This document shows, in pieces, positions 1,964-63,292 of a stretch of DNA of 64,000 nt. Position 1 is the first letter of the stretch, and the number at the start of each line of letters is the position of its first letter. Made by a program: the position numbers and the translations under genes. Origin of the DNA: an uncultured Chloroflexia bacterium (GTDB lineage: Bacteria > Chloroflexota > Chloroflexia > QHBQ01 > JADMIH01). The stretch lies in contig CAWEQU010000005.1 of assembly GCA_963811305.1 (NCBI GenBank), forward strand, positions 11,314 to 75,313, in the 5' to 3' direction. The notes beneath the pieces were generated by a model that worked only from the letters and a program-made list of their open reading frames with translations, was not told the DNA's origin and made no database searches.

Positions 1964-2229
1964 AAACATGCGCCATCCCGAATTTTGAGCAAGCTTCATT
2001 AGAATCGACAAATCGACGGAACCGCCAAGACGCCAAGACGCCAAGAGCACCAAGAACCCGCCAAGATAATAAAGGATGGAGAGCTTCCTAATTCTTTACC
2101 CCTTCGTCTCAGCTAAATCTCCGCGTCTCTGCGCCTCTGCGGTAAAACCAATAAATAATCTTGGCGGGTTCTTGGCGCTCTTGGCGTCTTGGCGGTTCCG
2201 TACTCTATAGTTCGGGATCTCTCATGTTT
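1964..2229. mobile_element. MITE-like non-autonomous element, copy E1: ~20-bp terminal inverted repeat AAACAT-N5-CATCCCGAA, interior built of CCAAGAC/GTCTTGG and CTCTGCG heptamer arms
   Basis: Left end aaacatgcgccatcccgaatttt; right end agttcgggatctctcatgttt. Internal inverted arms lie at 2016-2067 and 2158-2201. Both ends match copy E2 (29039-29240) in the opposite orientation. No target-site duplication seen. Confidence 0.5.
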
Positions 2230-2245
2230 CTAGGCGATTGTGCTT

Positions 2246-3517
2246 TTATTTCTCATAAGGCTTGCCCACAGCGGCAGGGGGGCGCGCCCGGCCTATGACC
2301 CCGGCCAGCACCACTATGGTGATTATGTACGGCATCATCGTGAGGAACTGCGAGGGGAGATCGAAGTTGTAGCCCTGGATTTTTATCTGGAGCGCATCGG
2401 CGGAGCTGAAGGTCACTGCACCGCCCACCGCGCCAAAGGGTGTCCACTTACCGAATATCATTGCCGCGAGCGCGATGAAGCCCTTACCGTTGGTCATCTT
2501 ATCATCGAAGCTGAAGGTGGCTTCAAGGGAGAACCAGGCCCCCGCCAGTCCCGCCACAAGACCTGAGATGAAGACGTTCAGGTAGCGCAGGCGATTCACG
2601 TTGATGCCCATCGTGTCCGCGGCGCGAGGGTGCTCGCCAACGGCGCGGGTGCGCAGCCCCCACGCGGTGCGGAAGAGGAGGAGGCTCAGCAGGGGCACGA
2701 GTATGAGCATAGCATAGGCAATTGGCTTGTGGTCGAATAGCATAGGCCCTATTATCGGGATGCCTGACAGCACGGGGATAGGCATCTGGGGAAGCGCGCC
2801 ACCGACATGGCCGGACGATTGCAAGCCCAATACGACGTCGTTGCGCAACACCCCCGTCACACCCACCGCCAGGATGTTGATTACGGTGCCCGCGATGATC
2901 TGGTCGGTCTTGAAGCGGATAGCCAGCGCCGCGAGCAGCATCACCGTCACACCCCCCGCAGCCATGGCCGCGGTCAGCCCTATCCAGGAGTTGCTCGTCA
3001 GTAACGCGACTATATAACCCAGGCACGCTCCCGTGAGCATGACCCCCTCTATCGCTATGTTGATGACTCCCGAACGCTCACATAAGATGCCCGCCAGCGC
3101 GCCCAGGGCTATCGGTGTAGCGAGGCGCACGGTACGCGCAAGCATGTCAACCACATCAATACGGCTCCCAGCGACAGCCCAAATGAGCACGATCAAAAGG
3201 ATCGAGAAGATGAGCGCGCCCATGTAAGCCGTAAAGCCACGCGGCGAGCGCCGCAGCATCAGGAAAAGCGCGCCCGCGATCAACAGTGCGCTTATTACCC
3301 CTACGGTGATGACGGTAGGCAAAGGGATGTCAAGCAACGGCGGGTCGAGCGGCTTCGCACCAGGCCACGTGATGCGCAAGGTGGAGATTTTATCAGCCGC
3401 CACCTTGCCGCTGACCACCCAAAAGAGAAGCACCGCTGTGATGATGCCCACAACCCCCAGGATATGCTGCTTCCCTATCTGAAATTTAGCAGGCAACGCC
3501 CCTACATTAGCCGCCAA
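2246..3517 (-). CDS. ABC transporter permease (BMP/nucleoside-type uptake system, YufQ/NupQ-like)
   Basis: 423-aa polytopic hydrophobic ORF with the family-typical block RTRAVGEHPRAADTMGINV. It is last in a four-gene same-strand transporter set. TTG start. Confidence 0.85.
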   Translation of the reverse strand: MAANVGALPAKFQIGKQHILGVVGIITAVLLFWVVSGKVAADKISTLRITWPGAKPLDPPLLDIPLPTVITVGVISALLIAGALFLMLRRSPRGFTAYMGALIFSILLIVLIWAVAGSRIDVVDMLARTVRLATPIALGALAGILCERSGVINIAIEGVMLTGACLGYIVALLTSNSWIGLTAAMAAGGVTVMLLAALAIRFKTDQIIAGTVINILAVGVTGVLRNDVVLGLQSSGHVGGALPQMPIPVLSGIPIIGPMLFDHKPIAYAMLILVPLLSLLLFRTAWGLRTRAVGEHPRAADTMGINVNRLRYLNVFISGLVAGLAGAWFSLEATFSFDDKMTNGKGFIALAAMIFGKWTPFGAVGGAVTFSSADALQIKIQGYNFDLPSQFLTMMPYIITIVVLAGVIGRARPPAAVGKPYEK

Positions 3518-3541
3518 CTCTCACACCCCCAACTACACACT

Positions 3542-3606
3542 CTCACGTTTCACGTTTCACTCTATCGTCTATCGTCTATCGTCTATCGTCCATCGTCCAT
3601 CGTCCG
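3542..3606. repeat. Tandem heptamer array (CACGTTT x2, CTATCGT x4, CCATCGT x2)
   Basis: Read directly: tcacgtttcacgtttcactctatcgtctatcgtctatcgtctatcgtccatcgtccatcgtcc, filling the gap between the two permease genes. Confidence 0.85.
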
Positions 3607-3609
3607 CCC

Positions 3610-6426: not shown

Positions 6427-6509
6427 GAATTACGAATTACGAATTACGAGTTACGAATTGGTAAGCATAACCCGTAATTCGTAATTCGTAATTCGTAATT
6501 CGTAATTAC
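6427..6509. repeat. Heptamer hairpin: GAATTAC-type units, loop, then GTAATTC x5
   Basis: gaattacgaattacgaattacgagttacgaatt / ggtaagcataacc / cgtaattcgtaattcgtaattcgtaattcgtaattac. It occupies almost the whole ATPase-SBP intergenic gap. Confidence 0.85.
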
Positions 6510-8069
6510 TTACGGAACGGTTACGCCCGTCTTGATCGAGCCGTCGGCCAGGCCCTTGAGGATTGCGTCCAATTGGGTCTTGACCTCGGCGGGGATTGAA
6601 TCCTCGGCCTTGTGGAACGGGGTGAGGCCTACACCATTGCTCGCCGCATCGTAGAGCTGCGTGCCGCCCACGAAGGAACCGTCCTGCGCGGACTTGATAG
6701 CGGAGAAGACCGCGTTGTCCACGCGCTTCCCGGCGCTGGAGAGTATCTTCTCGGAGCCGAGAGCCGAGCCATTCTGGAACGTGGTTCCGTACTCGTCCTG
6801 GTCCACGCCGATAACCCACACGCCTGCCTGAGCCGCAGCCTGGATTGCGCCGGAGCCGGTCTGGCCGCCCGCGCCGAAGATGACGTCCGCACCCTCAGCG
6901 ATGAAGCTCTTGGCGGCTTCAGCGCCACGCGCGCGGTCTACGAAGGAGTCAATGTATACACTCCTCACCTGGATGTCAGGCTTGATGGACTTGGCGCCAT
7001 TCGTATAGCCCAGCACGAATTTCTTCACGGCAGGTACGCCCTCGATGCCACCGACCACGCCAATGATATTGGTCTGACTCATGGCAGCCGCGAGCGCTCC
7101 TGCCAGGTAGCCTGCCTGGTCCTCGGCGAAGACGAGTCCACGAACATTGGAGATTACAGGGTCATACGCGAAGTCGACGATGGCATACTTGATGTTAGGG
7201 TGCTTCGCGGCAGCGCCCTTTAGCGCGTCGCCCATCAGGAAGCCCACAGCTATGATCATGTCATAGTTCTGTGAGGCGAACTGCTCAAGGTTCTTGTCGT
7301 AGTCAGCGGATGCCGTAGTCTCGATGTAGTTGATCTCGACGCCAAGTTCCGTGCCTGCGCGCTTGAGACCCTCATAAGCGAACTGGTTGAACGTGCCGTC
7401 GTTGACCTTGCCCACGTCGGTAACGAGGCCGACTTTTAGTTTCGCGCCCGCGCCTGGGGTCGTCATAACACCAGGGGTCTCATTGCCCGTCATGCTGCTG
7501 TCGGTGATGTCGCCGCAGGAGACGTAGACAGAAGCTTCAGCCGCGCTCTTGTGTACGTTGATGGCGTAAGCCTGGCCTGCCGCCATCGTGAAGTCGGAGG
7601 TGGATATTGTGGTCTCGCTCTTGCCGTTGACCACACTGGTCAGGGCCACAGCAGGCGCGGGATCGAGATTGGCGCAGGTGCCTTTGTGGATGTGCGCCGG
7701 TTGAGGCTCGGTTGTGCCACCGCTTATGTCAATAGAGACGACCCAACCTGTGCTGCTCACCTTGATGGTGGCCGTGCCGTTCTGACCGGAGGCGTTCTGC
7801 TCCTTCATCGTTACGGTCATGTCCGTCATGGTTGGACCTGTGGTAGCCATTGCCGTTGCCATTGCTGTAGGCTCGGCTGTTGCTGCCATTGCCGTAGGCG
7901 CTGCTGTAGCCTCCATAGCGGCTGTGGGAGCCGATGTTGCTGGGACCGCCGTGCTTGGCACCGGGGTGTTATCCGCAGTGCCACCGCAGGCCGCCAGAAT
8001 AGGGAGTATCATTAGCAAAGCCGCCAACGATACCCCCGCCCGCCCGAAGATTTTCCTCTTGATAGACAT
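6510..8069 (-). CDS. BMP-family (PnrA/Med/TmpC-like) ABC substrate-binding lipoprotein with an extra N-terminal CHRD-like domain
   Basis: Lipobox ILAAC|GG and an Ala/Thr/Pro linker. A ~105-aa insert domain (nt 7506-7820) shows the AHIHKGTC..AINVHKS..SCGDI pattern. The BMP core follows (KLKVGLVTDVGKVNDGTFNQFAYEGLKRA, GVVGGIEGVPAVKKFVLGY). Confidence 0.85.
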   Translation of the reverse strand: MSIKRKIFGRAGVSLAALLMILPILAACGGTADNTPVPSTAVPATSAPTAAMEATAAPTAMAATAEPTAMATAMATTGPTMTDMTVTMKEQNASGQNGTATIKVSSTGWVVSIDISGGTTEPQPAHIHKGTCANLDPAPAVALTSVVNGKSETTISTSDFTMAAGQAYAINVHKSAAEASVYVSCGDITDSSMTGNETPGVMTTPGAGAKLKVGLVTDVGKVNDGTFNQFAYEGLKRAGTELGVEINYIETTASADYDKNLEQFASQNYDMIIAVGFLMGDALKGAAAKHPNIKYAIVDFAYDPVISNVRGLVFAEDQAGYLAGALAAAMSQTNIIGVVGGIEGVPAVKKFVLGYTNGAKSIKPDIQVRSVYIDSFVDRARGAEAAKSFIAEGADVIFGAGGQTGSGAIQAAAQAGVWVIGVDQDEYGTTFQNGSALGSEKILSSAGKRVDNAVFSAIKSAQDGSFVGGTQLYDAASNGVGLTPFHKAEDSIPAEVKTQLDAILKGLADGSIKTGVTVP

Positions 8070-8189: not shown

Positions 8190-8367
8190 GGACGATGGAC
8201 GATGGACGATAGATAAACACAGAGACACAAAGACGCAGAGGACGCACAGAGATTATTAACGGTAAAGGGGTGTTAAGTAACCCAAAATAATCTCTATGTT
8301 ACCTTTGTGCTCTCTGTGTCTCTGTGTTTATCTATCGTCCATCGTCCGTCGTCTGTCGTCTGTCGTC
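8190..8367. repeat. 178-nt composite imperfect palindrome built from GGACGAT/AGACGCA/CACAGAG-type heptamers and their complements
   Basis: Left arm ggacgatggacgatggacgatagataaacacagagacacaaagacgcagaggacgcacagagattatt. Right arm aataatctctatgttacctttgtgctctctgtgtctctgtgtttatctatcgtccatcgtccgtcgtctgtcgtctgtcgtc. It ends 3 nt from the stop of the 8371 gene. Confidence 0.8.
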
Positions 8368-8370
8368 TTC

Positions 8371-9468
8371 TCAGCGTGGCTCGAGGACGATGTTGAAGGT
8401 GCCTTCGGTCTGGGTACATTGGGGGAATACTTCGGTCTCAACGGTGCGGTAACCTGGCGCGGAGACGTTGACGTGAATGTGCGGGTGGATATTCTCATAC
8501 GGTCCGGGATAGTGACTTTCAAAGCTGTAAGACCCGGAAGGGCCAGTGATTATCATAGCTTCATACTCCTCCCTGTATACACCGTCAGGCCCGGCCATAC
8601 GGAACTTCAGCTTCGCGCCTTGTATTGGAGAGCAGTCGCGGCTTGACTTCACCACACCGTTGAGGATATGCCCTTTACCTACGGATGAGCGCAGGGGGGC
8701 GTCGGGAGGCTCAGGCCCGGTGGTGGGACCGGTCTGCGTGGGAACGCAGCCGGACGGTACTGCTGTCGGGGTAGCAAGGCCAGTAACCACCTCCGGGTGT
8801 ATGGCGCTGATGCGGGCGGTCCCCAGCTGCGCGATACGAATGTTCTCGTAAGTGCGCTTCTCAGGCACATAAAATGCCTCCTGGTAATACTCCAACACGG
8901 CGCGCTCAAAATATTGCACTCTATATGTCTGTTCGTTCAAGGGAGAGACTTCGGTGAACTCCCCGGAGATTGGATAGCCGAACTGCGCCAGCCCGCCAGT
9001 ATTGAGCCAGAAATCGAGGAACTCACAGCCCAGGTGCTTGCCCGTTTCGGGGAAAAGATGCGCGCCTTGTTGGGTGTTAGCCATCTCACCAGGCCCGCCG
9101 TTCGGGTACTTCTCTTTGTACTGGAAGACGCCCAGCAGAGATAGAAGCACGTCATAAGGTGGGTCGTTTTCGGGGTGTAGCTCGAACACGGCCTTCTCGA
9201 AGTACTGGACCGTATAAAGCTTGCCGTCTGTGTCAGACTTTTCTTGCATATCGTTCGAGATTGGGAGACCTTGCACCAAAGCACCCCCGTGCCTGGCGAA
9301 GTATTGCAGGAACTTACCCCTGACTACCTTACCCGTCTCAGGGAAGGTAAGAGATGTATCCTGGCCCTGGGCATGTAAAGGAGAGGCAGACTGGAACGAA
9401 AAGATTAAGATTGCCGAAAGGCTAGAAGCGAACAGGCGCAGCGCCATTTTCGATAGTGGTGAATTCAT
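8371..9468 (-). CDS. Secreted protein: the same two-repeat N-terminal module as gene 1..1299, fused to an intradiol-dioxygenase-like beta-sandwich domain
   Basis: Signal-like N-terminus. Repeats FPETGKVVRGKFLQYF..VQYFEKAVFELHPEN..VLLSLLG and FPETGKHLGCEFLDFW..VQYFERAVLEYY. C-terminal domain with NIHPHIHVNVSAPGY. Confidence 0.6.
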   Translation of the reverse strand: MNSPLSKMALRLFASSLSAILIFSFQSASPLHAQGQDTSLTFPETGKVVRGKFLQYFARHGGALVQGLPISNDMQEKSDTDGKLYTVQYFEKAVFELHPENDPPYDVLLSLLGVFQYKEKYPNGGPGEMANTQQGAHLFPETGKHLGCEFLDFWLNTGGLAQFGYPISGEFTEVSPLNEQTYRVQYFERAVLEYYQEAFYVPEKRTYENIRIAQLGTARISAIHPEVVTGLATPTAVPSGCVPTQTGPTTGPEPPDAPLRSSVGKGHILNGVVKSSRDCSPIQGAKLKFRMAGPDGVYREEYEAMIITGPSGSYSFESHYPGPYENIHPHIHVNVSAPGYRTVETEVFPQCTQTEGTFNIVLEPR

Positions 9469-10305: not shown

Positions 10306-10426
<121 letters not shown>

Positions 10427-10427
<1 letters not shown>

Positions 10428-11736
10428 TAGCGCAACGACTCGGCAACTTGCAAAGCGTCGGATAGGAAAACAGGTATTTCTAGCCTGTATGCGACACCGT
10501 CTTCCTCCCACATGAGCGCATCACCGGGTATATGGTGTTGCGAAGTCAATGTTTCCTGCTTCTCCTTCATCGTAGAAGGTCAGGAGATGTGGAGCAGCCA
10601 TCCACCTTGCTGAATGCCCATGCACTGACGCCTCGGCAAGGAGACTGACCGCCCGCAAAGGTCTCCTTAGCGGCAGGGCCGGCAACCATCTGGTAGAGGA
10701 GCATACCCACTCGGTCGCGCTGTCCAGGGCTGTACCATGCAAGGACCACCATTGGACTTGCCCGCTCCTGGAAGAAGACCAGGTCCGGCTCGTCTATATA
10801 TCGCGGGTAAGCAGGCCACCTGATAGGGAAAGCTACTCGCTTACGCGCCTCCTCAAGGGTTGTAGCGCCCGCCAGGTTGCGCGTCCACTCCGGTGGCGTC
10901 TGGTCAATTTCCGAGATTGGAGTCTCGATGCCCTGGGAGATTTCAAGTGATTCCGCAATGCGCACTGCCTCTTCGAGCGGGAGGGTAGTTTCCAGCCTAT
11001 AGGTTACGTCATCTTCTTCCCAAACCAGGACGTCGCCGTCTACCAGCCGCCGGGCCTCCTCTCTGACGAAGCCCCAGATGTCGTAGAACTGCAACCAATG
11101 CGGCCCACGTACCCATGCAGCACGCTTCCCGTTGACTGTCGTTTCTTGAAGCTGCGTGCTTTCAGCTATTGATTTCTCGAGGAGCTGGGACAGCGAAGAT
11201 ATTTCATACAGTACCAGGCGTGCCTGGTCCTTGCGACCAGGTTCGTGCCATGCGAGGATGAGCGCCGGGCCGCCGAAGTCCTGCATAAAGACGCGGTCAG
11301 GTTTACCCAGGTCTGAGGGGTATTTCGGCAGCCTGATGGGAAGAGGGAATTGCTCTGCGGCAAAAGCAAGCGTAGTCTCACCCACCAGGTTAAGCGGGCG
11401 GGCGGGAGTAGGCGATGGACCCGGTGTGGTCGAGACCGATGTGGGCACGGGAGTAGCGACCACCACTTCGATAACTCCGATGCGGAATATAGAGCGGACG
11501 AACCCCTGAACTTCGGGCACGGTAAGGAGAGTTGCCAGGATGAGCAATACCGATAGCGCTGCTAGCGTCCACGCGAACCTGGGCCGAGGTCGCGCTGCGG
11601 CTGATTGTGGACTATTCGCGCTTGCCAATCTCTGACGCACGGAGCCGGCGATATCGGGCGTAGGGGGGTAGCGGAATGCCGGTGCGACATTACGCAGGCG
11701 CTCATCCATCGTGGCAAACTGGTGTTGATCGCTCAT
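10427..11736 (-). pseudogene. Anti-sigma factor (single TM, two DUF4367-like extracytoplasmic repeats), interrupted by two frameshifts (~10642 and ~10525) or sequencing errors
   Basis: ATGA overlap with the ECF sigma gene. Repeat 1 ends ..VNGKRAAWVRGPHWLQFYD..DGDVLVWEEDDVTYRLETTLPLEEAVRIAESLE. The repeat 2 equivalent is split over three frames: ..FAGGQS | SLLAEASVHGHSARWMAAPHLLTFYD.. | GDALMWEEDGVAYRLEIPVFLSDALQVAESLR*. Confidence 0.6.
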
Positions 11737-12305
11737 GCCTGGCGCTCCTCCCGTAAGGCTGGAAAGTCCCTGTCAACCAACCCGCGCAACCGGGCCAGGG
11801 CACGGTGCAGGCGAGATTTTACCGTACCTGGAGCAACTCGAAGCGCACTCGCCATCTCGGCTTCTGATAGATCAAGGAAATAGCGCATGTAGACCACCTC
11901 TTGCTCGTTACTCTTCAACCGGCGGACTGCCTGCCAGAGGGTATGAGCCTCCCATTGTTGCGCGCTTCGCTCGCTCAGCGAAACGGAAGAATCAAGCACC
12001 CCAGGCTCCAATTGGGCCGTGCGTCGCAGGGCTGCCAGGTAGCGTTTTACCGACCGCATCTTGTTGCGTGCAAGGTTGGAGGCTATGGTCAGCAGCCAGG
12101 GGCGCATGGAGCGTGTGGTGTCGAAGGTGTGAAGGGCATGGAACGCCCGCACGAACGTATCCTGTGCGACATCCTCGGCCTCATGCGCGTCGGCCAGCAG
12201 AAGATAGGCAAGACGAAATACCGGCTCCTGGTGCTCGCGGACAAGCATCTCCCAGGCCGCATCGTCGCCCGTGCGTGCGCGGCTTATCAGATCAGGTTCA
12301 CTCAA
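11733..12305 (-). CDS. ECF-type RNA polymerase sigma-70 family factor
   Basis: 190 aa. Region 2 DVAQDTFVRAF, region 4 EVVYMRYFLDLSEAEMASALRVAPGTVKSRLHRALARLR. Confidence 0.9.
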   Translation of the reverse strand: MSEPDLISRARTGDDAAWEMLVREHQEPVFRLAYLLLADAHEAEDVAQDTFVRAFHALHTFDTTRSMRPWLLTIASNLARNKMRSVKRYLAALRRTAQLEPGVLDSSVSLSERSAQQWEAHTLWQAVRRLKSNEQEVVYMRYFLDLSEAEMASALRVAPGTVKSRLHRALARLRGLVDRDFPALREERQA

Positions 12306-12373: not shown

Positions 12374-12420
12374 GGATGGACGATAGACGATAGACGATGG
12401 ACGATGGACGATGGACGATA
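12374..12420. repeat. Tandem heptamer array (GGACGAT/AGACGAT x7)
   Basis: ggatggacgatagacgatagacgatggacgatggacgatggacgata read directly. Confidence 0.8.
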
Positions 12421-12623: not shown

Positions 12624-12685
12624 AAGCTGTGTAAGAACAATGACGAAGGCTGATAAGCCTGCTATAACGAAGCACCCCTTTCCCT

Positions 12686-12765
12686 GTCATTCCGAACGCA
12701 GTGAGGAATCTCCGAGCTTAGACGTATGGATAGAGTTTTAAATTCCTCACTGCGTTCGGAATGAC
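12686..12765. repeat. 80-nt palindromic element, family P copy 1 (24-nt arms GTCATTCCGAACGNAGTGAGGAAT)
   Basis: gtcattccgaacgcagtgaggaat..(32 nt loop ctccgagcttagacgtatggatagagttttaa)..attcctcactgcgttcggaatgac. The right flank actctttatacattcgttgtta is shared with the copy at 44230. Confidence 0.75.
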
Positions 12766-12809
12766 ACTCTTTATACATTCGTTGTTACACACCCTCTCAG
12801 ATATGTCGT

Positions 12810-13695: not shown

Positions 13696-13794
13696 GTAGG
13701 GGCGGTTCGTGAACCGCCCTGGTCAAGACCGTACTTGCTTACGCCCAAGTTCGCGCGAGTGTTCACATGAGGGCGGTTCACGAACCGCCCCTAC
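13696..13794. repeat. Pair of inverted GC-rich hairpin units (GTAGGGGCGGTTCGTGAACCGCCC / GGGCGGTTCACGAACCGCCCCTAC)
   Basis: Each unit is itself a hairpin and the two are reverse complements 51 nt apart, in the divergent region between the kinase and gamma-CA genes. Related GC-rich, partly self-complementary GTA(G/C)GGG..CCC(C/G)TAC-type segments occur near 50090, 51004 and 59081. Confidence 0.6.
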
Positions 13795-18557: not shown

Positions 18558-18583
18558 GAAACGTGATGCGTGATGCGTGATAT
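18558..18583. repeat. Short heptamer array (AACGTGA, TGCGTGA x2)
   Basis: gaaacgtgatgcgtgatgcgtgatat immediately upstream of cca. Confidence 0.6.
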
Positions 18584-19358: not shown

Positions 19359-19440
19359 GCTACGCCAGGATTGGAGCGTCTTAGCTACCGGCCTCAATTG
19401 TCCACAAGAGCTTTGCGGCGCTGTGATAAACCACAAATAA

Positions 19441-46279: not shown

Positions 46280-46362
46280 CCAATTACGAATTACGAATTA
46301 CGGGGTGAACTTCACAATTCGTAATTCGTAATTCGTAATTCGTAATTCGTAATTCGTAATTA
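46280..46362. repeat. Heptamer hairpin (GAATTAC x3 / loop / GTAATTC x7) filling the stop-to-ATG gap
   Basis: TGA(46277-79) ccaattacgaattacgaattacgg ggtgaacttcac aattcgtaattcgtaattcgtaattcgtaattcgtaattcgtaattac cATG(46365). Confidence 0.9.
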
Positions 46363-47543: not shown

Positions 47544-47615
47544 CGTCACACATATTTACCAAACCGCAGAGGCGCAGAGACGCTGAGGTTCGATAGAGAG
47601 TAAAATTAAGGACCA

Positions 47616-47667
47616 ACGCATCACGTTTCATCGTCCATCGTCCATCGTCCATCGTCCGGCATCACGC
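47616..47667. repeat. Heptamer array (CACGTTT, CATCGTC x4, CACGCAT) abutting the ATG at 47668
   Basis: cgcatcacgtttcatcgtccatcgtccatcgtccatcgtccggcatcacgcATG. Confidence 0.8.
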
Positions 47668-48807
47668 ATGATACTATTCATCACCCGCAAACACCCTCCA
47701 TCGGTCGGGGGGATGCAGAAGTTGAGCCAGAGCCTCACCAAGGAGGTGGGCAGGCTCACCCCCACAAGCACCATCTACTGGGGAGGCTCGACCCTGTTCG
47801 TCCCCTTCTTCATCGTCTACGCTTTTCTGAAGGCTATATTCACCGTGCCGCGCTCCAACCACGTCAAGCTAATCCACCTGTCGGACGCTCTCCTGACCCC
47901 GCTGGGGCTAGCGCTGAGAACGCTTCTGCGCGTGCCTGTGGTCGTCACGGTACACGGCCTGGACGTGACCTACTCCAATCGCCTCTACCAGTGGCTAATC
48001 CCGCGCTGTCTGAAGCGCATGGACAAGATAATCTGCGTGAGCAGCTACACGCGCCACCAGTGCATCAAGCGGGGCGTGCCTGCCAACCTGTGCGTGGTCA
48101 TACCAAACGGGGTGAACATGCTGGAGTTTGGGGACCAGTATACCCAGCAGGGGATGCGCAACATCCAGCACCTGGCCGGGCGGGCGCTTCGAGGGCGTAA
48201 GGTGCTGCTCACGGTAGGTCGCCTTATCGAGCGCAAAGGAGTAGTACACTTCCTCACCGAGGTCATGCCTCGTATGCTGGCGCAACGGCAGGACTTCTGC
48301 TACATGATTGTGGGGGAAGGTCCGCAACGCGAGCTTATAGAGACGCGTATAACATCCCTGCATCTTGAAGACCACGTAGTCCTGCTCGGGCGCGTAGACG
48401 ACGACACCTTGCGGGCGGCATACTACCTGACCGACCTCTTTATCATGCCTAACATACCCGTGCAAAACGATATAGAGGGCTTCGGCCTAGTCGCGCTTGA
48501 GGCGGCGGCGGCAGGACGCTACGTGGTGGCCTCTCGCCTCGACGGCATACCGGAGGCGATAGTCCCCGGCCAGAATGGAATGCTACTCGACCCCCTCGAT
48601 AGCGAGGCCTTCGCCACCACCATACTCGACTTGCTGGCAGATGATGAAAAGAGGCAGATTCTGGGCCATCAGGCACGCGAGTTCGTGAGGGACCGCTACT
48701 CGTGGGATATAGTCGCCCGCCGCTACCAGCAGGTGTTCATGCAGGTCACGCAATCGCAGCGCCCGGCGATGGACGACGGGCGACGGACGACAGACGACGG
48801 ACGATGA
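47668..48807 (+). CDS. Glycosyltransferase family 4 (GT-B)
   Basis: ITRKHPPSVGGMQK and EGFGLVALEAAAAGRYVVASRLDGIPE. The last 12 codons ([12 protein letters not shown]) are encoded by heptamer repeats. Confidence 0.85.
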   Translation: MILFITRKHPPSVGGMQKLSQSLTKEVGRLTPTSTIYWGGSTLFVPFFIVYAFLKAIFTVPRSNHVKLIHLSDALLTPLGLALRTLLRVPVVVTVHGLDVTYSNRLYQWLIPRCLKRMDKIICVSSYTRHQCIKRGVPANLCVVIPNGVNMLEFGDQYTQQGMRNIQHLAGRALRGRKVLLTVGRLIERKGVVHFLTEVMPRMLAQRQDFCYMIVGEGPQRELIETRITSLHLEDHVVLLGRVDDDTLRAAYYLTDLFIMPNIPVQNDIEGFGLVALEAAAAGRYVVASRLDGIPEAIVPGQNGMLLDPLDSEAFATTILDLLADDEKRQILGHQAREFVRDRYSWDIVARRYQQVFMQVTQSQRPAMDDGRRTTDDGR

Positions 48808-48923
48808 ACGCGTGATGCGTGAATTAATCCGTCTTTCGTCCTTCATCCTTCATCCTTCGTCCCTAACATATCCTCCGGAGGCTCAGGACCCATCTGTCGT
48901 CCGTCGTCCGCCGTCCGTCGTCC
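48768..48923. repeat. Nested heptamer palindrome overlapping the 3' end of one gene and the 5' end of the next
   Basis: The arm ggacgacgggcgacggacgacagacgacggacgatgaa (48771-48808) pairs with ctgtcgtccgtcgtccgccgtccgtcgtcc (48894-48923). An inner segment ttcgtccttcatccttcatccttcgtcc lies between. Confidence 0.7.
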
Positions 48924-50089: not shown

Positions 50090-50117
50090 GTACGGGCGGC
50101 TCGCGAGCCGCCCGTAC
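50090..50117. repeat. GC-rich hairpin unit (GTACGGGCGGCTCG/CGAGCCGCCCGTAC) just after the stop
   Basis: The 28-nt stretch gtacgggcggctcgcgagccgcccgtac is a perfect palindrome. No T-run follows. Confidence 0.55.
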
Positions 50118-50989: not shown

Positions 50990-51176
50990 TCATTCTCCCG
51001 TAGGGGCGCGGCACGCCGCGCCCGCCCTGTTCACCACAAGTCTAGCCATCCCAGGGCAGGCACGGGGACCTGTCCCTACCTAACATATGGCGAGCTAGCT
51101 TGACACCGCATAGTCAGTGTGCTATCTTGCCCAGAGCCGCATAGCGTGCCTGAATTATGGGAGGCATCTAACCAGC

Positions 51177-51998
51177 GTGACCAACGCAGAGCCACACGGG
51201 ACAGACAGCCCGCATATCGAAAACAACACTCTCGCTCAGGGAGAAACAAAAGATAAGAAGTCCGGGGACGACCAGGAATTGCGCCTCTCGGTCGTAATCC
51301 CCATGTACAACGAAACGAGCCGTATAAGCGATACTATACCCCCCCTCCTGGCATATTTCTCCGGCCAGCCTTACAAGTATGAATTCGTGATAGTGGACGA
51401 CGGCTCCACCGACGGCACTGCGGAGTTAGCACGCAAGCTATTTGCTCCGGCAGAGAACATGCGAGTGCTAGAGAAACACCCCAACAAAGGTAAGGGGAGC
51501 GCGATAAGGGCGGGTATGCTGGCCGCGAAGGGCAAGGTGGTGCTATTCTGCGACGCAGACCTCGCCACGCCGCCGGGGGAGCTTGACAAGTTCTGGCGTT
51601 GGCTCGATGCAGGGTATGATGTGGTCATCGGCTCGCGCAAGATGGAAGGGGCTAACATCACCCGCCACCAGCCGAAGTGGCGCGAGAGCCTGGGCAAAGT
51701 TTTCACCTGGCTCACCAACAGGCTCGCCACGCGTGGCATCTCCGACGTGACGTGCGGCTTCAAATGCTTCAGCCGCGACGCCGCCCGTGAGTTGTTCTCC
51801 CGCGCCAGACTGAACGACTGGAGCTTCGACGCGGAAGTGCTCTTTATCGCCCAGCACCGAGGCTACCGGATAAAAGAAGTACCCGTCACTTGGCACGATA
51901 AACCGGGCACGAAGGTGCGCCTCCTCCAGGATGCGACACGCTCCCTGGCAGGCTTGATGAAGATACGCCTCAACGGGCTGAGGGGGAAGTACAAGTAG
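51177..51998 (+). CDS. Glycosyltransferase family 2 (dolichyl/polyprenyl-phosphate glycosyltransferase-like)
   Basis: LSVVIPMYNE and FVIVDDGSTDGT..DADL motifs. The start could be GTG 51177 or further upstream at 51117. Confidence 0.8.
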   Translation: MTNAEPHGTDSPHIENNTLAQGETKDKKSGDDQELRLSVVIPMYNETSRISDTIPPLLAYFSGQPYKYEFVIVDDGSTDGTAELARKLFAPAENMRVLEKHPNKGKGSAIRAGMLAAKGKVVLFCDADLATPPGELDKFWRWLDAGYDVVIGSRKMEGANITRHQPKWRESLGKVFTWLTNRLATRGISDVTCGFKCFSRDAARELFSRARLNDWSFDAEVLFIAQHRGYRIKEVPVTWHDKPGTKVRLLQDATRSLAGLMKIRLNGLRGKYK

Positions 51999-52183
51999 AC
52001 GTGATGCGTGATGAAACGTGAAACGTGAAACGTGAGAGCAGTGCTTATTCGAAACTCCAATACTCAACAAATCTCTGCGTCTCTGCGCCTCTGCGGTAAA
52101 CCTTAAAAAACTTGGCGTTCTTGGTCCCCTTGGCATCTTGGCGTTTAATAATCACGCATCACGCATCACGTTTCACGTTTCAG
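51999..52183. repeat. Composite heptamer element filling the stop-to-ATG gap (ACGTGAA/ATGCGTG arm, CTCTGCG x3, CTTGGCG units, CACGCAT/CACGTTT arm)
   Basis: acgtgatgcgtgatgaaacgtgaaacgtgaaacgtgag..ctctgcgtctctgcgcctctgcgg..cttggcgttcttggtccccttggcatcttggcg..atcacgcatcacgcatcacgtttcacgtttcag. The outer arms are complementary. Confidence 0.8.
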
Positions 52184-52185
52184 AA

Positions 52186-54270
52186 ATGGCCCTTAGCTCC
52201 CCCCAAACCTACTTACATCTTCTCATAGCGCTTTTGATGCTCGCGCTGCCTGGCATGGCGGTCATAATGGCGCTACGGCGCTGGCTGGACAGACAGCCAA
52301 TGGGCTTCGTGAGTGCCCTCCTTCCGGGCTTTGGGCTGAGTATAGCTCTGTGGCCTCTCCTCTTGCTGTATATCTCCCTGGTCGGACTGAGCTTCACGCC
52401 CTGGCTGGTGTGGGCGGTGCTGGTTCTGTCAGGCGGGTATGTCCTGTACGAAGCTGTACGTCAAAAGGCAGAAGGCAGCGGGCAGAAGGCAGAAACTGAC
52501 CTTACACAAAACTCTCACGCCTCACGTTTCACGTCTCACGTTTCACGTTTCACCCTCCTCTCGTTACTCGCCCTCACCCTCCTCTACCAGGCATTTAGAC
52601 TGGGCGACGTCGCCGGGCTATCTGTACCCATGTTTGGCGACTCCATGCACCATACCATGATCACTACCCTGATCGTGGACGGCGGCAAAGTCCCAACAGG
52701 CTATCTCCCCTACGTACCCGTAGATACGTTCACTTACCACTTCGGCTTCCACACCATGGCGGCGGTCTTCGCCATGCTGACAGGCTCCACGCCTGAGTAT
52801 GCAGTGCTGTTGCTTGGGCAGGTGCTTATCACCCTCTCAGTGCCCCTTGCTTACCTGCTCAACCGCGTGCTATTTGGATCAAGGCTGGCGGGGCTGGGGT
52901 CTGCGTTCCTTACAGCGGTGGTCTCCCTCATGCCCGCGTTTTACGTCAACTGGGGCAGATACACGCAGCTATCCGGGCATCTGCTCTTGATAGTTGCGCT
53001 CGTTGCGCTTGTGCGTGTGATGCGGCCCGGACCATTAACGAGGCGTACCGACTTCGTCTTGCTGATACTGTCGGTGGGTGGACTGGTGGTGGTGCATTAC
53101 CGCATCCTTTTATTCTTCGGCCTCTTCGCTATCGCGCTCGGCACATGGCAATTAGCCGCACAGTGGGGCAGGTGGCGCGACCTGCTCTCCGCCTGGGGAC
53201 GCTCCATCGCCGCGATGGCATTGGGTCTCCTACTGGCGCTGCCCTGGATAATCAACCTCATCACGAACTACATACGCGGTCTGGTAGAGCGGCTGGGCAC
53301 TGTCACCGCCGACTATCTATCGTTGTACAACGACCCAAACACGCTCCTCATACATCTCGGTAGAGTGCTGCCATTGGTCGCGCTCCTGGGGCTTGTCGCG
53401 GGCGTGGTAAACCTGTGGCAATCCCGCGCCAAAGGCCCCGCGCGGCGAGACAATGGCAAGATGGAGAGCGTGAGTGCTCCGCCCCTTCCACCATACGCTG
53501 CCTGCCTGGTCCTCACGTTGTGGGCCGAGCTACTGGTTGCCAGCCTGTGGGTCGTGCCGGGGGCGATTGGCAGCTACACGGTGGCAATCACGCTTTATAT
53601 ACCCTTGAGCGCGCTGGGTGGTTACGGCATCAGATCGCTCTGCACCCTGGTGCAGCGATTCTTGAGGGTGCCGAGGTGGGTATTTACTCCACTGCTCGTG
53701 TTGGTCGCGCCTATATTCGCATTTCTACTGGGCACGGCCCACGTCGCGGCACCTGCGACTTTCAACTACCTCCAGGGAGCGGACGAGCGAGCGTTCCAGT
53801 GGGTGAAATCGAACGTCCCCGGTAGTGCTAAGTTCCTCATTTCCTCGGAGTTCTCATACTCCGGGAGGGCCGTCACCGCCAGTGATGCGGGTATGTGGCT
53901 ACCCCTACTTACAGGTAGAAATGTAAGCGTGCCCGCCCTTAACTCATGGATGGAGCGCCCGATTGAGACCGATTTCTTCACTCGCACACGCCAGCTCGCG
54001 GCTTACACCCAGCCTGTCACGCCTCTATCAGTAGGAGGCACGACACAGGCCGAGCTTGTCAGGCGCAAGATCATCCAGGAGGAGCACTCCCTCAGCGACC
54101 CGGCGGCGCTCGATCTCATGCGCGGGCTAGGCGTTACACATGTGTACGTAGGGGCGCAAGCTGGCGCATCCAAACCTCGCCTGGACGTACTCGCTTTGCG
54201 TAGGGACACAGACCACTACAAGCTACTCTACTTCGAGGAAGGGGTGTACATATTCGAGGTGGTATACTGA
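52186..54270 (+). CDS. Large polytopic membrane protein with an extracytoplasmic C-terminal domain (possible GT-C-type glycosyltransferase), containing an in-frame heptamer-repeat insert
   Basis: Start MALSSPQTYLHLL. More than 12 hydrophobic helices. The loop QKAEGSGQKAETDLTQNSHASRFTSHVSRFT is encoded by GGCAGAA and CACGTTT repeats (52462-52554). Function is not established. Confidence 0.6.
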   Translation: MALSSPQTYLHLLIALLMLALPGMAVIMALRRWLDRQPMGFVSALLPGFGLSIALWPLLLLYISLVGLSFTPWLVWAVLVLSGGYVLYEAVRQKAEGSGQKAETDLTQNSHASRFTSHVSRFTLLSLLALTLLYQAFRLGDVAGLSVPMFGDSMHHTMITTLIVDGGKVPTGYLPYVPVDTFTYHFGFHTMAAVFAMLTGSTPEYAVLLLGQVLITLSVPLAYLLNRVLFGSRLAGLGSAFLTAVVSLMPAFYVNWGRYTQLSGHLLLIVALVALVRVMRPGPLTRRTDFVLLILSVGGLVVVHYRILLFFGLFAIALGTWQLAAQWGRWRDLLSAWGRSIAAMALGLLLALPWIINLITNYIRGLVERLGTVTADYLSLYNDPNTLLIHLGRVLPLVALLGLVAGVVNLWQSRAKGPARRDNGKMESVSAPPLPPYAACLVLTLWAELLVASLWVVPGAIGSYTVAITLYIPLSALGGYGIRSLCTLVQRFLRVPRWVFTPLLVLVAPIFAFLLGTAHVAAPATFNYLQGADERAFQWVKSNVPGSAKFLISSEFSYSGRAVTASDAGMWLPLLTGRNVSVPALNSWMERPIETDFFTRTRQLAAYTQPVTPLSVGGTTQAELVRRKIIQEEHSLSDPAALDLMRGLGVTHVYVGAQAGASKPRLDVLALRRDTDHYKLLYFEEGVYIFEVVY

Positions 54271-55585: not shown

Positions 55586-55796
55586 ACATTACTCATCCCG
55601 AATTTAAGATTTGCACCTACCTCATTCATAAACTCACTTCGAAACCCCCACCCCCGACCCCCTCCCCAATGGGGAGGAGAGTTTGAAAAAAGTACAAAAA
55701 TGGAGGTTTGGCTCAGCCAAACCTCCATTTTTGTACTTTTCAAGGAGTTGTTAGTGCGTCAGCACGCTCGCTGAAAATTCGGGATGACTGATGTTC
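55584..55796. mobile_element. MITE-like element, copy E3, filling the gap between convergent genes, with a perfect 26-bp-stem hairpin (55688-55740)
   Basis: Ends aaacattactcatcccgaattt and aaaattcgggatgactgatgttc are inverted repeats of each other and match the E1/E2 termini. The left end overlaps the MFS stop codon. Confidence 0.6.
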
Positions 55797-59117: not shown

Positions 59118-59915
59118 CTAATAGTGCCCGAAGAGCATCATACTGAGCGACGGGAGTTTGAGGGCTTCGGCAAAGGGGCCTGGATAGACGAGGAAGAGTA
59201 TAGCCGCCGCGCACAGAGCGACCCCATATGGCATGAAGTCCCCTATCTTGCTGCGGCGTGAGAGGAGCATGATGAGCGCGGCAGCCCCCGCCAGTAAGGG
59301 CCCAATGAGTAGCGCGCCGACGACGTTAGGGAAGCCGAGCATCAGACCCATCATCAACGCCAGGAAGACGTCGCCCGCGCCAAGAGGCTCTTCTATGCGC
59401 GGGAAGATCAGCTTCGCAAGTAGATACGCGAGCAGGAAGAATCCCCCTGCAACTGCCGCCCCAATCAACGCGCTCACGATACCCACTTCGGGCAATAGCG
59501 CACTCCCGGCGAGAGCCACGACCACGCCTAGAGCGATGATGGAGAGGTAGATGTCACGGTGCTTCCAGTCGATCACCAGCACCAGCACGAGCACGGCCAC
59601 ATACAGTGCATGGAAGAGGAGACGCACTCCCCAACCCTCCAGCAAGAAGAGAGCAGCAAATAAAAACCCCATCAGTAATTCCACGAGTGGATATGATATG
59701 GAGAGCCTCTTGTCGCAAGTAGAGCAGCGCCCACCCTGGAGAGCATACCCCACGATGGGAAGCGCCTGTGCCAAACTAAGGGAGTGATCCGAGCGCGTGC
59801 AACCCAACGCGGCAAGCAACGGCTTGTTAGCCGAAAGGCGCGTGGAGACTACGTTTATCGCAAACCCTACGATGAAACCGATGAGTAAGGCAACTAGCGC
59901 GCCTATGACCTCCAA
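59118..59915 (-). CDS. pilD: A24-family prepilin peptidase
   Basis: GRCSTCDKRLSISYPLVELLMG, IDWKHRDI (first catalytic Asp region), and LGAGDVFLALMMGLMLG (second Asp). Confidence 0.8.
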   Translation of the reverse strand: MEVIGALVALLIGFIVGFAINVVSTRLSANKPLLAALGCTRSDHSLSLAQALPIVGYALQGGRCSTCDKRLSISYPLVELLMGFLFAALFLLEGWGVRLLFHALYVAVLVLVLVIDWKHRDIYLSIIALGVVVALAGSALLPEVGIVSALIGAAVAGGFFLLAYLLAKLIFPRIEEPLGAGDVFLALMMGLMLGFPNVVGALLIGPLLAGAAALIMLLSRRSKIGDFMPYGVALCAAAILFLVYPGPFAEALKLPSLSMMLFGHY

Positions 59916-59940: not shown

Positions 59941-59973
59941 ACTTCTAATTTCTAACTTCTAACTTCTAATTTC
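59941..59973. repeat. Heptamer array (CTTCTAA x4)
   Basis: acttctaatttctaacttctaacttctaatttc just upstream of pilD. Confidence 0.7.
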
Positions 59974-61732: not shown

Positions 61733-61750
61733 AGTAAGCTGCCCGTAACT

Positions 61751-61899
61751 CCGCCCGGCAGATAAATCTGCGGGCTACATATACGAAGCCCGCCTGCGCG
61801 GGCTGACGCGCTAAAACGTGATAGGCCGCAACGATAAGTACGGGCTAGCCCGCGCAGGCGGGCTTTGTAACTTGTAGCCCGCAGATTTATCTGCCGGGC
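61751..61899. repeat. 149-nt nested palindrome (28-bp perfect outer arms, 19-bp inner arms)
   Basis: Outer arms cgcccggcagataaatctgcgggctaca (61751-78) / tgtagcccgcagatttatctgccgggcg (61872-99). Inner arms aagcccgcctgcgcgggct (61785-803) / agcccgcgcaggcgggctt (61846-64). Confidence 0.8.
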
Positions 61900-61997
61900 G
61901 AGGCTAAGACGCAGCACTAGAGCGAAACCACATACTGCATTTGCAGGGCATGGCGACGCCATGCCCCTACAATCTACACATCTTACTGTTCAGCACG

Positions 61998-63202
61998 CTA
62001 CTTGACCCCAATCTCAGCAGCTATGGCGGGGAGCTTGAGGTTGGCTTTCTCGATACGCTCCATTGCCTTGCGCAGGTTCTCCTCGGAGTTTGCGAAGGAG
62101 ATGCGAATGTAGCCCTCGCCGTACTCTCCGAAGGATGTGCCTGGGAGCACCGCCACGTCTGCATCGTTGAGCAGGTAATCGGCGTATTCGCGTGAAGTCA
62201 TCCCCGTGTCGGTTATGTTGGGGAAGGCGTAGAACGCTCCCTCCGGCCTGTTGCAGCGCAACCCGTCAATCTTGTTCAGCCCCTCGTACACAAGGTCGCG
62301 GCGGCTGGCGAACGCCTCCAGCATCTTGTCCACCTCACCACGCGGCCCTTCCAGCGCCTCAATCGCAGCCCTCTGGCTGAAGGTGGATGTGCAGGATACG
62401 CTATTGATGATCAGGCGGCTGACATGCGGTATCATCTCTCCTGGGAAGATACCATAGCCCATTCGCCAGCCCGTCATGGCGAAGGTCTTGGAGAAACCGT
62501 CGAGGAGGATAGTGCGCTCCATCATGCCTGGGAAGCTCATAATGGTGTGGTGCTCCACCCCGTCATAGAGGATTTCGCTGTATATCTCGTCCGCCAGCAC
62601 CATGATGTTATGCTCGACCGCGATGTCGAGCCACTGCTTCCAGGTCGCTCCTGGAAAGGGCGCTGCCGGTCGGGTTATTAGGCGAGTTGATAATGATGAG
62701 GCGGGTCTTGGAGGAAATCTTGCTCTCCAACTCCTTGATGTTGACGTGGAAGTTGCGTATCTCGCTCAGTTGTAATGGAACCGCCACGCCCCCCAGGAAG
62801 TTGATCATCGACTTGTAAATGGGGAAGCCAGGATTGGGGTAAATTACCTCGTCCCCAGGCTCGATCAGCGCCATGATAGTGTAGAACATGATCGGCTTGG
62901 CGCCCGGCGTGACCACCACGTTGGCGGGGTCGAAGTGCAGCCCACGATTCTTGCCCGCATAGCGGGCGATGGCCTCTCTCAACTCTGGTATGCCGGTCGA
63001 GCCGCTGTAATGGGTATAGCCCTGCTCAAGCGCCTCGGCAGCCGCCTGCCGGACGTGCTTGGGTGTATCAAAGTCCGGCTCCCCTATCTCCAGATGGATG
63101 ATCAGGCTTACCCTGGGCCTCCAACGCCCTGGCGCGCGCCGCGACCTCAAATGCAGTCTCCGTACCGAGCCGGTACATCCTTTCAGCGAGCCTCAACTTC
63201 AT
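61998..63202 (-). pseudogene. Class I/II PLP-dependent (aspartate-type) aminotransferase, split by two frameshifts (~63105, ~62630) or sequencing errors
   Basis: Three consecutive ORFs read MKLRLAERMYRLGTETAFEVAARARALEAQGK | IIHLEIGEPDFDTPKHV..INSPNNPTGSALSRSDLEAVA | DIAVEHNIMVLADEIYSEILYDG..LDGFSKTFAMTGWRMGY. The PLP-Lys motif SKTF is intact. Confidence 0.8.
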
Positions 63203-63217
63203 CGTTGACCCCCTTTT

Positions 63218-63292
63218 GGAATTTTGAGTTTTGAATTCTAAATTTTGAATTATGGGGATCAATTCAAAATTTAGAATTCATAATTTAGAATT
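63218..63292. repeat. AT-rich heptamer hairpin (GAATTTT/GAGTTTT/GAATTCT units and their complements)
   Basis: ggaattttgagttttgaattctaaattttgaatt atggggatc aattcaaaatttagaattcataatttagaatt. The right arm overlaps the TAA of the M42 peptidase gene. Confidence 0.8.

Follow-up and report, generated by a model that had tools for sequence, protein, structure and literature searches.

Introduction

Heptameric repeats have been known in cyanobacteria since 1990, and CCCCAGT, TTGGTCA and CAACAGT are the canonical units of the short tandemly repeated repetitive (STRR) families STRR1-3. In the present work, arrays of seven- and eight-nucleotide units were analyzed in a 64-kb stretch of DNA from an uncultured Chloroflexia bacterium, referred to as the window. 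Judged by analogy, these arrays are the Chloroflexia counterpart of cyanobacterial STRR and are of the same kind as STRR, the TAACTGA repeats, the Xanthomonas and Nostoc heptamers and the Chloroflexus aurantiacus repeats. In the explanation that we favor, at a probability of roughly 0.55, they are STRR-like slippage arrays that were copied into palindromes and dispersed as small modules, and whose function we infer to be, probably, that of intercistronic RNA stem-loops.

In STRR, units of 7 bp fold into hairpins in spacers such as that between hupS and hupL; their function is unknown, and roles in transcript stability or translational coupling were proposed (PMC2670836). The window arrays likewise consist of tandem 7-bp units in several families spread over many loci, lie mostly in intergenic regions and often form hairpins between cistrons, which upholds the likeness to STRR drawn in an earlier note on this DNA. 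They differ in having a host from the Chloroflexota and in including two octamer families, and none of the STRR1-3 units occurs as a tandem pair in the window. The gene content, which includes an ABC transporter operon, SLH-domain proteins, GT4 glycosyltransferases and a CCA-adding enzyme, is not cyanobacterial, as had also been noted: one HIP1 site is present in the window, and the closest relatives are, to judge from syntenic genes, uncultured Chloroflexia metagenome-assembled genomes (MAGs). The same note had named STRR as the only comparable case, which is too narrow, as heptamers are over-represented in many bacteria including C. aurantiacus (PMC4692102, PMC6749651).

C. aurantiacus belongs to the same class as the window host. 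Its heptamer-derived satellites, with the unit (GATAGRA)n, are scattered genome-wide, and it tops the table of bacterial satellite counts (PMC6749651, Subirana & Messeguer 2019). Inverted arms, gene-boundary placement and handedness are not described in PMC6749651, and no (GATAGRA)n tandem was found in the window. The TAACTGA repeats of marine Beggiatoaceae, some Cyanobacteria and Bacteroidetes are intergenic and end a few nucleotides from start codons, in genomes with few canonical ribosome-binding sites; they occasionally form arrays inside open reading frames (ORFs), are patchy across phyla, and S1 or cold-shock proteins were proposed as their binders (PMC4679880). They have a single unit that is nearly always in direct orientation, with one inverted case reported (PMC4679880). 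The window arrays likewise end close to start codons, but have many units, none of them TAACTGA, and form palindromes at about half of the loci.

The GGGAATC and GGGGA(T/C)T heptamers of Xanthomonas and Nostoc are intergenic and occupy the same junctions in related species with varying length and sequence, some as inverted pairs, and heptamer over-representation was attributed to polymerase slippage (PMC4692102). Those units are quadruplex-forming G-tract repeats, whereas the units found here lack G-tracts.

Repetitive extragenic palindromic (REP) elements lie within operons and act as mRNA stabilizers or attenuators; each family has one consensus of about 35 nt and is linked to a RAYT transposase. 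The small dispersed repeats (SDR) of Nostoc punctiforme, reportedly described by Elhai et al. in 2008, are said to be very small and mobile, to insert in hairpins and to nest. REP-type elements also occur as many dispersed copies with nested insertions (PMC3116915). Unlike REPs and REPINs, the arms described here are tandem arrays that vary in unit and length, and a scan of 40 window ORFs yielded no RAYT. Bidirectional intrinsic terminators share with the window hairpins a purine-rich 5' and a pyrimidine-rich 3' side on both strands, a polarity that is forced on them by their A-tract, stem and T-tract; the heptamer hairpins have no T-tract, are much longer, and lie mostly inside operons and not at their ends. 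As far as found in the literature searched, there is no earlier description of the handedness rule, the preference for coupled junctions or the inversion reported below.

Arrays of period seven recur throughout the window

Arrays were called with Tandem Repeats Finder (TRF). In addition, perfect repetition over two or more copies plus 4 nt was scored as an exact run and counted at periods 4-12, with shuffled sequence as control. The window contains 23 exact period-7 runs, compared with 0-3 at the other periods and none at period 7 in the shuffles. Two comparison sets were used, namely unit-anchored loci (860 kb) and the window together with protein-anchored relatives (211 kb), in which loci from other assemblies carry L-numbers. 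The unit-anchored loci contain 315 exact period-7 runs against 0-16 per other period, and period 7 is in excess in the protein-anchored relatives as well. The excess of period 7 proposed in the earlier note is borne out in the window, and TRF found arrays at every position that had been listed there.

Nineteen array loci were counted in the window, about one per 3.4 kb. Inverted-arm hairpins make up about 10 of the 19, and the remainder are single unstructured arrays. The ten hairpin loci (2016-2201, 6427-6509, 8190-8368, 10306-10427, 29067-29196, 40895-40980, 46279-46362, 48767-48923, 51999-52183 and 63218-63292) fold very stably, with z values of -3.8 to -16 as RNA and -8 to -12.5 as DNA. 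Among them, arms of 95-100% complementarity, irregular spacers included, indicate templating. At least 16 inverted-arm loci had been claimed before; the claim stands for these ten, and the other six (3542-3606, 12374-12420, 18558-18583, 19441-19478, 47616-47667 and 59941-59973) have no complementary arm. Five of the six, all but 19441-19478, were folded and are unstructured, with z around 0. Three loci had been overlooked (26254-26277, 47565-47588 and 52465-52553), the last of them inside coding sequence.

Contrary to the earlier statement, the period is not always 7. Two families, CGCCAAGA and CTCTGCG[CT], are octamers, and TRF reported period 8 at 2023, 2119, 2170, 19458, 26254, 29074, 29153, 47565 and 52072. 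Unequal copy numbers in paired arms were confirmed (3.0 versus 6.6 at 46282/46316; 3.0 versus 5.4 at 8190/8331). A consistent bias in which arm is longer was looked for across the TRF calls and was not found, the picture being mixed.

A small unit vocabulary is dispersed as modules

The 89 arrays in the 211-kb set fall into 32 canonical unit classes, and about 69 of them belong to three one-mutation superfamilies, [AG]GACGA[ATC], CACG[TC][TA]T and AATTACG/AACTCGT/AAAATTC. Alignment of the units on their pyrimidine-rich strand gave T-Y-Y-N-K-C-G at 4.72 bits, against 4.10 ± 0.15 for a letter-shuffled null, a rough test in which the null had fewer restarts. Contrary to what had been supposed, the units are not unrelated to one another: they make up 3-4 superfamilies with a CGT/ACG core in common, and their consensus is CGT plus pyrimidines.

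A scan with GACGATRGACGATRGACGAT against one genome per species returned at least 117 loci; among the matches listed, 57 were from Chloroflexota (spanning Chloroflexia, Caldilineales, Anaerolineae and Thermomicrobiales), 20 from Acidobacteriota, 19 from Bacteroidota and a few from other phyla. In the Chloroflexota unit-anchored loci, CACGTTT, CACGCAT and AGACGAT co-occur as they do in the window. Arrays of GGACGAT also occur at multiple loci in two predicted viral contigs of 86 and 52 kb, IMGVR_UViG_3300022562_001969 (L133, L154, L160) and IMGVR_UViG_3300015263_001423 (L135, L147, L149, L158). On the sequences compared, short tandem arrays in Chloroflexia spacers appear as a lineage-wide feature, and the same vocabulary recurs across Chloroflexota.

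Blocks of arrays recur as modules that hold a fixed internal order of variants at every occurrence and across MAGs, for example the 24-nt CTCTGCGTCTCTGCGCCTCTGCGG and ACGGAACCGCCAAGACGCCAAGA. The palindromes at 2016-2201 and 29067-29196 are reverse-complement copies of each other, including about 30 nt of flank on each side, and the 180-nt composite at 8190-8368 has an 82%-identical copy in another genome (L099) where it is flanked by unrelated genes. Modules also sit inside one another's loops. Because modules keep their variant order and the composite recurs between unrelated genes, dispersal of sequence modules belongs to the explanation alongside slippage. The earlier argument that a conserved period with variable sequence speaks against a mobile family is not supported in that form, given that the same few units turn up again at unrelated loci and from genome to genome and that whole modules recur.

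Miniature transposable elements, MITE- or REPIN-like, with a dedicated transposase and with the arrays as terminal inverted repeats, would also place composites at non-orthologous sites, including two copies in the window, and would fit both the nesting of modules and their polymorphic presence at orthologous junctions. We consider them improbable. No target-site duplication is visible at the ends of 8190-8368, its L099 copy or the 2016 and 29067 copies, few copies having been examined, and no transposase or RAYT-type domain was detected among the 40 window ORFs scanned. Moreover, many loci are single arrays without a partner, and arm sequences vary by locus with no single terminal-repeat consensus.

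Junctions stay occupied while their units turn over

Two MAGs among the listed GACGATRGACGATRGACGAT matches are relatives of the window. One shows 70-75% nucleotide identity over syntenic genes; the other has the window's repeat elements in common, and its synteny was confirmed at 82% protein identity. Protein search and exact look-ups yielded syntenic loci at 88, 85, 82, 75, 68, 65 and 58% protein identity, and a metagenome scan with a single protein as query yielded 6 loci. L119 and L120 are the NCBI and ENA versions of one contig.

In the operon encoding LPG synthase, two GT4 glycosyltransferases (GT4a and GT4b) and a pyruvyl transferase, all three internal junctions bear arrays, each in 7 of 8 genomes (58-100% protein identity), with differing units. 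At the first junction the window has AATTACG, its closest relative GACGAAG, three others AATTTTG/AATTCTA and the most distant genome GCGGAAT; the latter carries an AATTACG/AATTCGT hairpin at another junction of the same operon. Orthologous junctions that lack arrays number four, and in each of them the genes overlap or lie at most 7 nt apart. In the window, L119 and L122, junctions with promoters, REP-like palindromes or classical A-tract/T-tract terminators are free of arrays. At the junction of 40895-40980, L122 and L119 have the right arm alone. In L081, where the DUF305 gene is absent, a TGAAACG/CACGTTT hairpin follows the ortholog of the 40174-40899 gene.

Copy numbers vary between orthologous arrays, and the values that short-read assemblies give for these genomes are not to be relied on. 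The array orthologous to 47616-47667 differs by 14 nt between L119 and L120, whose sole difference is a two-unit, 14-nt indel ATCGTCTAACGTCT at position 11245, inside the array. This indel and the variable ortholog copy numbers support the ongoing slippage suggested in the earlier note. Contigs tend to end in arrays: L119 ends in a 142-nt GGACGAA array (19985-20126), and a third assembly (L121) stops inside an array. Such breaks, together with the two-unit disagreement between assemblies, are what assembly artefacts would produce, a reading that is hardly conceivable for the arrays as such: the same junctions carry them in independent samples and assemblies, contigs of 1.6 to 5.8 Mb among them, and uncertainty is confined to the exact copy number.

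Gene callers were misled by the arrays, in that ORFs were extended through them and start codons were called inside them. At 48767-48923 and at about 4500-4540 of L099, ORFs enter arrays and gain heptamer-encoded C-terminal tails (...RRTTDDGR) or N-terminal extensions. The annotated start codons of the pyruvyl-transferase gene in L119 and L120 are 229 nt apart in their own coordinates (about 243 nt allowing for the 14-nt indel).

The palindrome at 51999-52183 gave a further kind of change. Its inner 115 nt (52036-52150), holding a CTCTGCG module and a CTTGGCG array, are 87% identical to the reverse complement of the L122 ortholog, and the arms and flanking genes are collinear with L122, so that only the inner segment is flipped. 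By alignment, this is a DNA inversion between the arms. Invertible switches, in which the arms would serve as inverted repeats of segments that flip and alter downstream expression, would account for this flipped segment between unmoved arms and genes. Among 8 placements of the CTCTGCG module, 7 have purine-rich sequence in the sense direction, and the exception is the window copy at 52073. Such switches are nevertheless very unlikely: the case is single and lies between genomes, not within one population, no recombinase gene is nearby, the segment has no convincing promoter, and most loops are short.

Arm order and distance to stop and start codons

The location at gene boundaries stated in the earlier note was upheld by tabulation, arrays often lying 0-7 nt from a stop or start codon. 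A stop codon is at most 3 nt from the array at seven loci and a start codon at most 7 nt away at five (arrays at 18558, 19441, 46280, 47616 and 51999, which end 0-7 nt from start codons); two hairpins fill the full stop-to-start spacer. A polarity relative to genes, with GGACGAT near stop and ATCGTCC near start codons, was considered and dropped, as palindromes read identically on both strands, and the question was re-tested as handedness. The order of the arms is an intrinsic property of a palindrome and not an orientation to genes.

In the unit-anchored set, 67 of the 73 hairpins that are not neutral carry their purines mainly in the 5' arm (p = 4e-14), with GGACGAT-type units first in 38 cases and second in 2. 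The independent protein-anchored set gave the same result for 20 of 21 hairpins (p = 2e-5), with A>T and G>C in 19 of 21 each. Unpaired arrays at co-directional junctions are purine-rich in the sense direction in 42 cases and pyrimidine-rich in 21, and often begin at the stop codon. Because RNA-DNA hybrids with a pyrimidine-rich RNA strand are weak, a pyrimidine-rich 3' arm would favor co-transcriptional folding and release.

A protein-binding ruler was considered at this point. The heptamer would be the site of an OB-fold single-strand binder that covers 6-7 nt (a cold-shock protein, for instance, or ribosomal protein S1), and the protein coating a pyrimidine-rich arm or leader would tune hairpin opening, antitermination or Shine-Dalgarno-independent initiation. 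Seven nucleotides is the size of the heptanucleotide site of B. subtilis CspB, which has a pyrimidine-rich preference, GTCTTTG/T (PMC1904285), and one protein per heptamer was suggested for the TAACTGA repeats (PMC4679880). The pyrimidine-strand units follow G-T-Y-Y-N-K-C, the family CGTCTTT contains GTCTTT, and single pyrimidine-rich arrays are unstructured and adjoin start codons without a Shine-Dalgarno motif. As an account of the period of 7 the idea is attractive. Both the binder and the tuning assigned to it nevertheless strike us as quite unlikely. The resemblance to the CspB motif is a lead only, two families have period 8, and the pyrimidine-rich arm is transcribed last, which is the less favorable order for blocking folding. 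No cold-shock gene was found in the window or the syntenic loci, which says little, as the gene could be anywhere in the genome.

Proposed mechanism and competing readings

Comparison of copies and orthologs demonstrates slippage, templated arms, module dispersal, nesting and inversion, which together amount to a fast life cycle at the DNA level. In the mechanism proposed, replication slippage adds and removes whole units, and an array would be copied to an inverted partner, probably by fold-back or template switching, giving a near-perfect palindrome with arms alike even in their irregularities. Array blocks behave as small dispersed modules that land at unrelated sites, nest in loops and can flip by recombination between arms. 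They would build up in tightly coupled, operon-internal junctions, from stop codon to start codon, with rapid turnover of sequence and stable position. On the mRNA, the palindrome would form a long stem-loop, its 5' arm rich in purines and its 3' arm in pyrimidines, and the fold would loop out the insert and leave the stop codon beside the start codon where the stem begins. Such a structure would probably serve as intercistronic punctuation like that of REPs or bacterial interspersed mosaic elements (BIMEs): it would block 3' exonucleases and/or act as a partial stop to transcription, and would thereby set how strongly neighboring cistrons are expressed relative to each other. Single pyrimidine-rich arrays would be unstructured leaders without a Shine-Dalgarno motif, directly before start codons.

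A structure-based role of the hairpins, as suggested in the earlier note, is plausible. Because position persists, because tightly coupled junctions alone are occupied and because the palindromes are handed, a constraint at the level of the single strand, most simply on the transcript, is suggested, and it is from this constraint that intercistronic RNA stem-loops are favored.

Several observations weigh against these RNA stem-loops. We infer the RNA-level role in its entirety from sequence. On the sense strand, G.U and A.C mismatches number 10 and 7, showing no sense preference. The antisense fold is as stable as or more stable than the sense fold in 7 of 10 hairpins, so there is no direct sequence sign of selection on RNA pairing. 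The near-perfect arms would point to young DNA-level copies and not to long-maintained RNA structures. The proposed role is inapplicable at 29067-29196, in a divergent region, and at 52465-52553, in coding sequence. No heptamer hairpin has a T-tract: a terminator scan over 38-57 kb picked up classical palindromes and no heptamer hairpin, and no T-runs follow the arms. Shine-Dalgarno motifs precede 0 of 6 array-preceded genes and 29 of 75 others, a difference that is not significant. Neither target-site duplications, at the few element ends inspected, nor a transposase, among the window ORFs scanned, were found for the modules. Finally, the model gives no reason for the period of 7.

The main rival, which we regard as rather unlikely, is that the arrays are selfish or neutral DNA without a cellular role, produced by a 7-nt slippage bias and palindrome formation and tolerated in spacers because selection purges insertions elsewhere. 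The fast turnover of units at fixed junctions, the young near-perfect arms, the lack of a sense-strand G.U signal and the arrays in coding sequence and in the divergent region are all in line with it, as are the arrays in predicted viral contigs and many phyla and the published slippage hypothesis (PMC4692102). However, a strand-symmetric neutral process does not predict the handedness (67/73 and 20/21) or the 2:1 sense bias of single arrays. It also does not predict occupancy of 7/8 at each of three junctions while others are empty in the three genomes compared, and random slippage seeds would be expected to give arbitrary units and not a common vocabulary.

Three other known classes were ruled out. 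Integron attC sites do not apply, the genes being conserved syntenic operons and not cassettes; RNA thermometers would need much weaker stems than those found here, at -30 to -100 kcal/mol; and CRISPR would require a repeat-spacer pattern, which is absent.

Features of the individual loci

The palindrome at 2016-2201 is compound. Octamer arms of four CGCCAAGA and four TCTTGGCG units are capped by ACGGAACC/GGTTCCGT, and the loop holds a CTCTGCG[CT] module (2119-2141). Its arms (2031-2070/2155-2194) are 95% complementary (RNA -102 kcal/mol, z -11.6), and it lies 44 nt after the stop codon of a permease gene, 2246-3517(-). The second copy of the CGCCAAGA palindrome, at 29067-29196 in reverse orientation, has 57-nt arms (z -12.5) and occupies a divergent intergenic region.

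At 6427-6509, 4.7 copies of GAATTAC face 5.0 copies of GTAATTC in 32-nt arms of 97% complementarity (z -10.4); this hairpin begins at the stop codon of a substrate-binding-protein gene, 6510-8069(-), and ends 13 nt before the start codon of an ABC ATPase gene. The palindrome at 8190-8368 is nested, with outer arms of GGACGAT (three copies) and (C/T)GTCGTC (5.4 copies) around inner arms of ACACAGAG-type octamers; its 43-nt arms are 95% complementary (z -16), and it lies 2 nt from the stop codon of 8371-9468(-). In the hairpin at 10306-10427, three GGACGAC units face five TATCGTC units, and an unpaired GTAGGCA array of 5.9 copies lies in the loop (z -5.1).

A perfect 35-bp hairpin at 40895-40980 (AGTTACG, 4.6 copies, versus AACTCGT, 5.6 copies; 100% complementary, z -15.2) takes in at its base the stop codons of both convergent genes, 40174-40899(+) and 40976-41614(-). 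At 46279-46362, AATTACG (three copies) and AATTCGT (6.6 copies) can pair in many alternative registers (z -7.3) and fill the entire spacer between the TGA stop codon at 46277-46279 and the initiating ATG at 46365. The hairpin at 48767-48923 pairs 5.4 GGACGAC-type units with four GTCGTCC units, has GCGTGAT and CGTCCTT arrays in its loop (z -7.2), and shares sequence with two ORFs, that of GT4b at its 3' end and that of the pyruvyl transferase at its called 5' end. The palindrome at 51999-52183, with arms GCGTGAT/GAAACGT and ATCACGC/CACGTTT (z -3.8), reaches from the TAG that ends one gene (51996-51998) to the ATG that begins the next (52186). At 63218-63292, 32-nt arms of AATTTTG/AATTCTA units (88% complementary, z -8.0) begin at the stop codon of 63291-63977(-); this unit family also occurs in L080, L119, L122 and L129.

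Among the unpaired arrays, 3542-3606 consists of 2.6 copies of CACGTTT followed by 6.3 copies of TATCGTC/CATCGTC, single arms without a partner (z -1.7, unstructured); it occupies the 92-nt spacer of two permease genes, leaving 3 nt on the side of the stop codon and 24 nt on that of the start codon. The array at 12374-12420 (7.3 copies of GGACGAT/AGACGAT, z +0.6) is pyrimidine-rich in the sense direction and lies 68 nt upstream of an ECF sigma factor gene, 11733-12305(-). The array at 18558-18583, sense ATCACGC in 2.9 copies (z -0.6), ends 7 nt short of the ATG that opens the gene for the CCA-adding enzyme, 17168-18550(-), and the single octamer array of TCTTGGCG at 19441-19478 is 4 nt from the start codon of 18708-19436(-). 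On the plus strand, the leader at 47616-47667 runs from ACGCATCACGTTT through 4.1 copies of CATCGTC and CATCACGC straight into the ATG at 47668, and is unstructured and without a Shine-Dalgarno motif. At 59941-59973, 4.7 copies of ACTTCTA (minimum free energy 0) lie 25 nt upstream of the start codon of a prepilin-peptidase-like gene, 59118-59915(-).

The 24-nt module CTCTGCGTCTCTGCGCCTCTGCGG stands free at 26254-26277, 13 nt after the stop codon of a helicase gene, 26291-27688(-). A reverse-complement copy of the CTCTGCG module at 47565-47588, 21 nt after the GT4a stop codon, is kept at this junction in L118, L119 and L122. The arrays at 52465-52553 (plus strand) lie in the coding sequence of a DUF6541 membrane protein, where 4.3 copies of AAGGCAG and 5.9 CACGTTT-type copies encode ...QKAEGSGQKAE...SHASRFTSHVSRFT...; they are kept in L122 (16790-16876) with the unit CACGCAT in place of CACGTTT, giving the product THASRITHHASRIT, and are translated as part of a loop.

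Neighboring elements

An 80-nt palindromic element with ends TGTCATTCCGAACGnAGTGAGGAAT...ATTCCTCACTnCGTTCGGAATGACA occurs in three copies (12685-12766, 26114-26195 and 44229-44309). The site orthologous to 44229 has only a 29-nt mini-hairpin, TGTCATTCC...GGAATGACA, in L119 and nothing in L122, and a relative of the element is nested in heptamer hairpins of L081 and L129. By its form, the element would seem to be a MITE-like family of its own. REP-like GC-rich palindromes, GGGCGG(C/T)TCG(C/T)GA(A/G)CCGCCC, follow stop codons at 13696-13794, 50090-50117 and about 50995-51030, and at 13745-13830 in L119 and 13605-13700 in L122; one such junction has one unit in the window and two in relatives. 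Classical palindromes with A-tract, stem and T-tract lie at 39129-39187 and 55688-55740, both at ends of transcription units, and at 45238-45290 and 41641-41685. They have other sequences at the same junctions in relatives and form a class apart from the heptamer hairpins. The 21-nt motif CATCCCGAATTTTGAGCAAGC occurs at 1974-1994 and, on the reverse strand, at 29210-29230 and 55766-55786; two copies flank CGCCAAGA palindromes, paired with TTCGGGAT opposite, and the third adjoins the rpoA terminator.

The region 22633-28955 looks like a defense or DNA-repair island, with the GC content falling to 0.525 at 22-24 kb. It encodes a DarT-like ADP-ribosyltransferase and a NADAR antitoxin (22633-24076), a DUF790 protein and an XPB-like helicase (24284-27688) and an RNase-H-like/TPR protein (27678-28955). 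Two overlapping ORFs, 41697-43322 and 42862-44157, share between them a copper-type P-type ATPase for which L119 and L122 each have one undivided gene (819 aa); the split is due to a frameshift, a pseudogene or a sequencing error. No tRNA or tmRNA was found in the window, and Rfam covariance models run against the whole window gave no match at the gathering threshold.

Implications

In practical terms, short-read contigs break at the arrays, and gene callers are misled by them. Why the period is 7 and what heptamer repeats do have long been unexplained, even though such repeats are over-represented in many bacteria. A more far-reaching reading, and a long shot, is that the repeats form a cross-phylum register code for a single-strand binder with a 7-nt footprint, carrying a cold-shock domain or S1, with the handedness as a directional co-transcriptional switch. 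If so, the pyrimidine-rich 3' arm would be at once a weak RNA-DNA hybrid and a protein landing pad beside the start codon, and the concentration of the chaperone would govern hundreds of operon junctions together, in their termination, in transcript stability and in coupled re-initiation. In these uncultured Chloroflexia the arrays are as dense as elsewhere, and their handedness, persistence at junctions, CGT-core vocabulary, dispersal and inversion, and differences in unit number make them experimentally usable.

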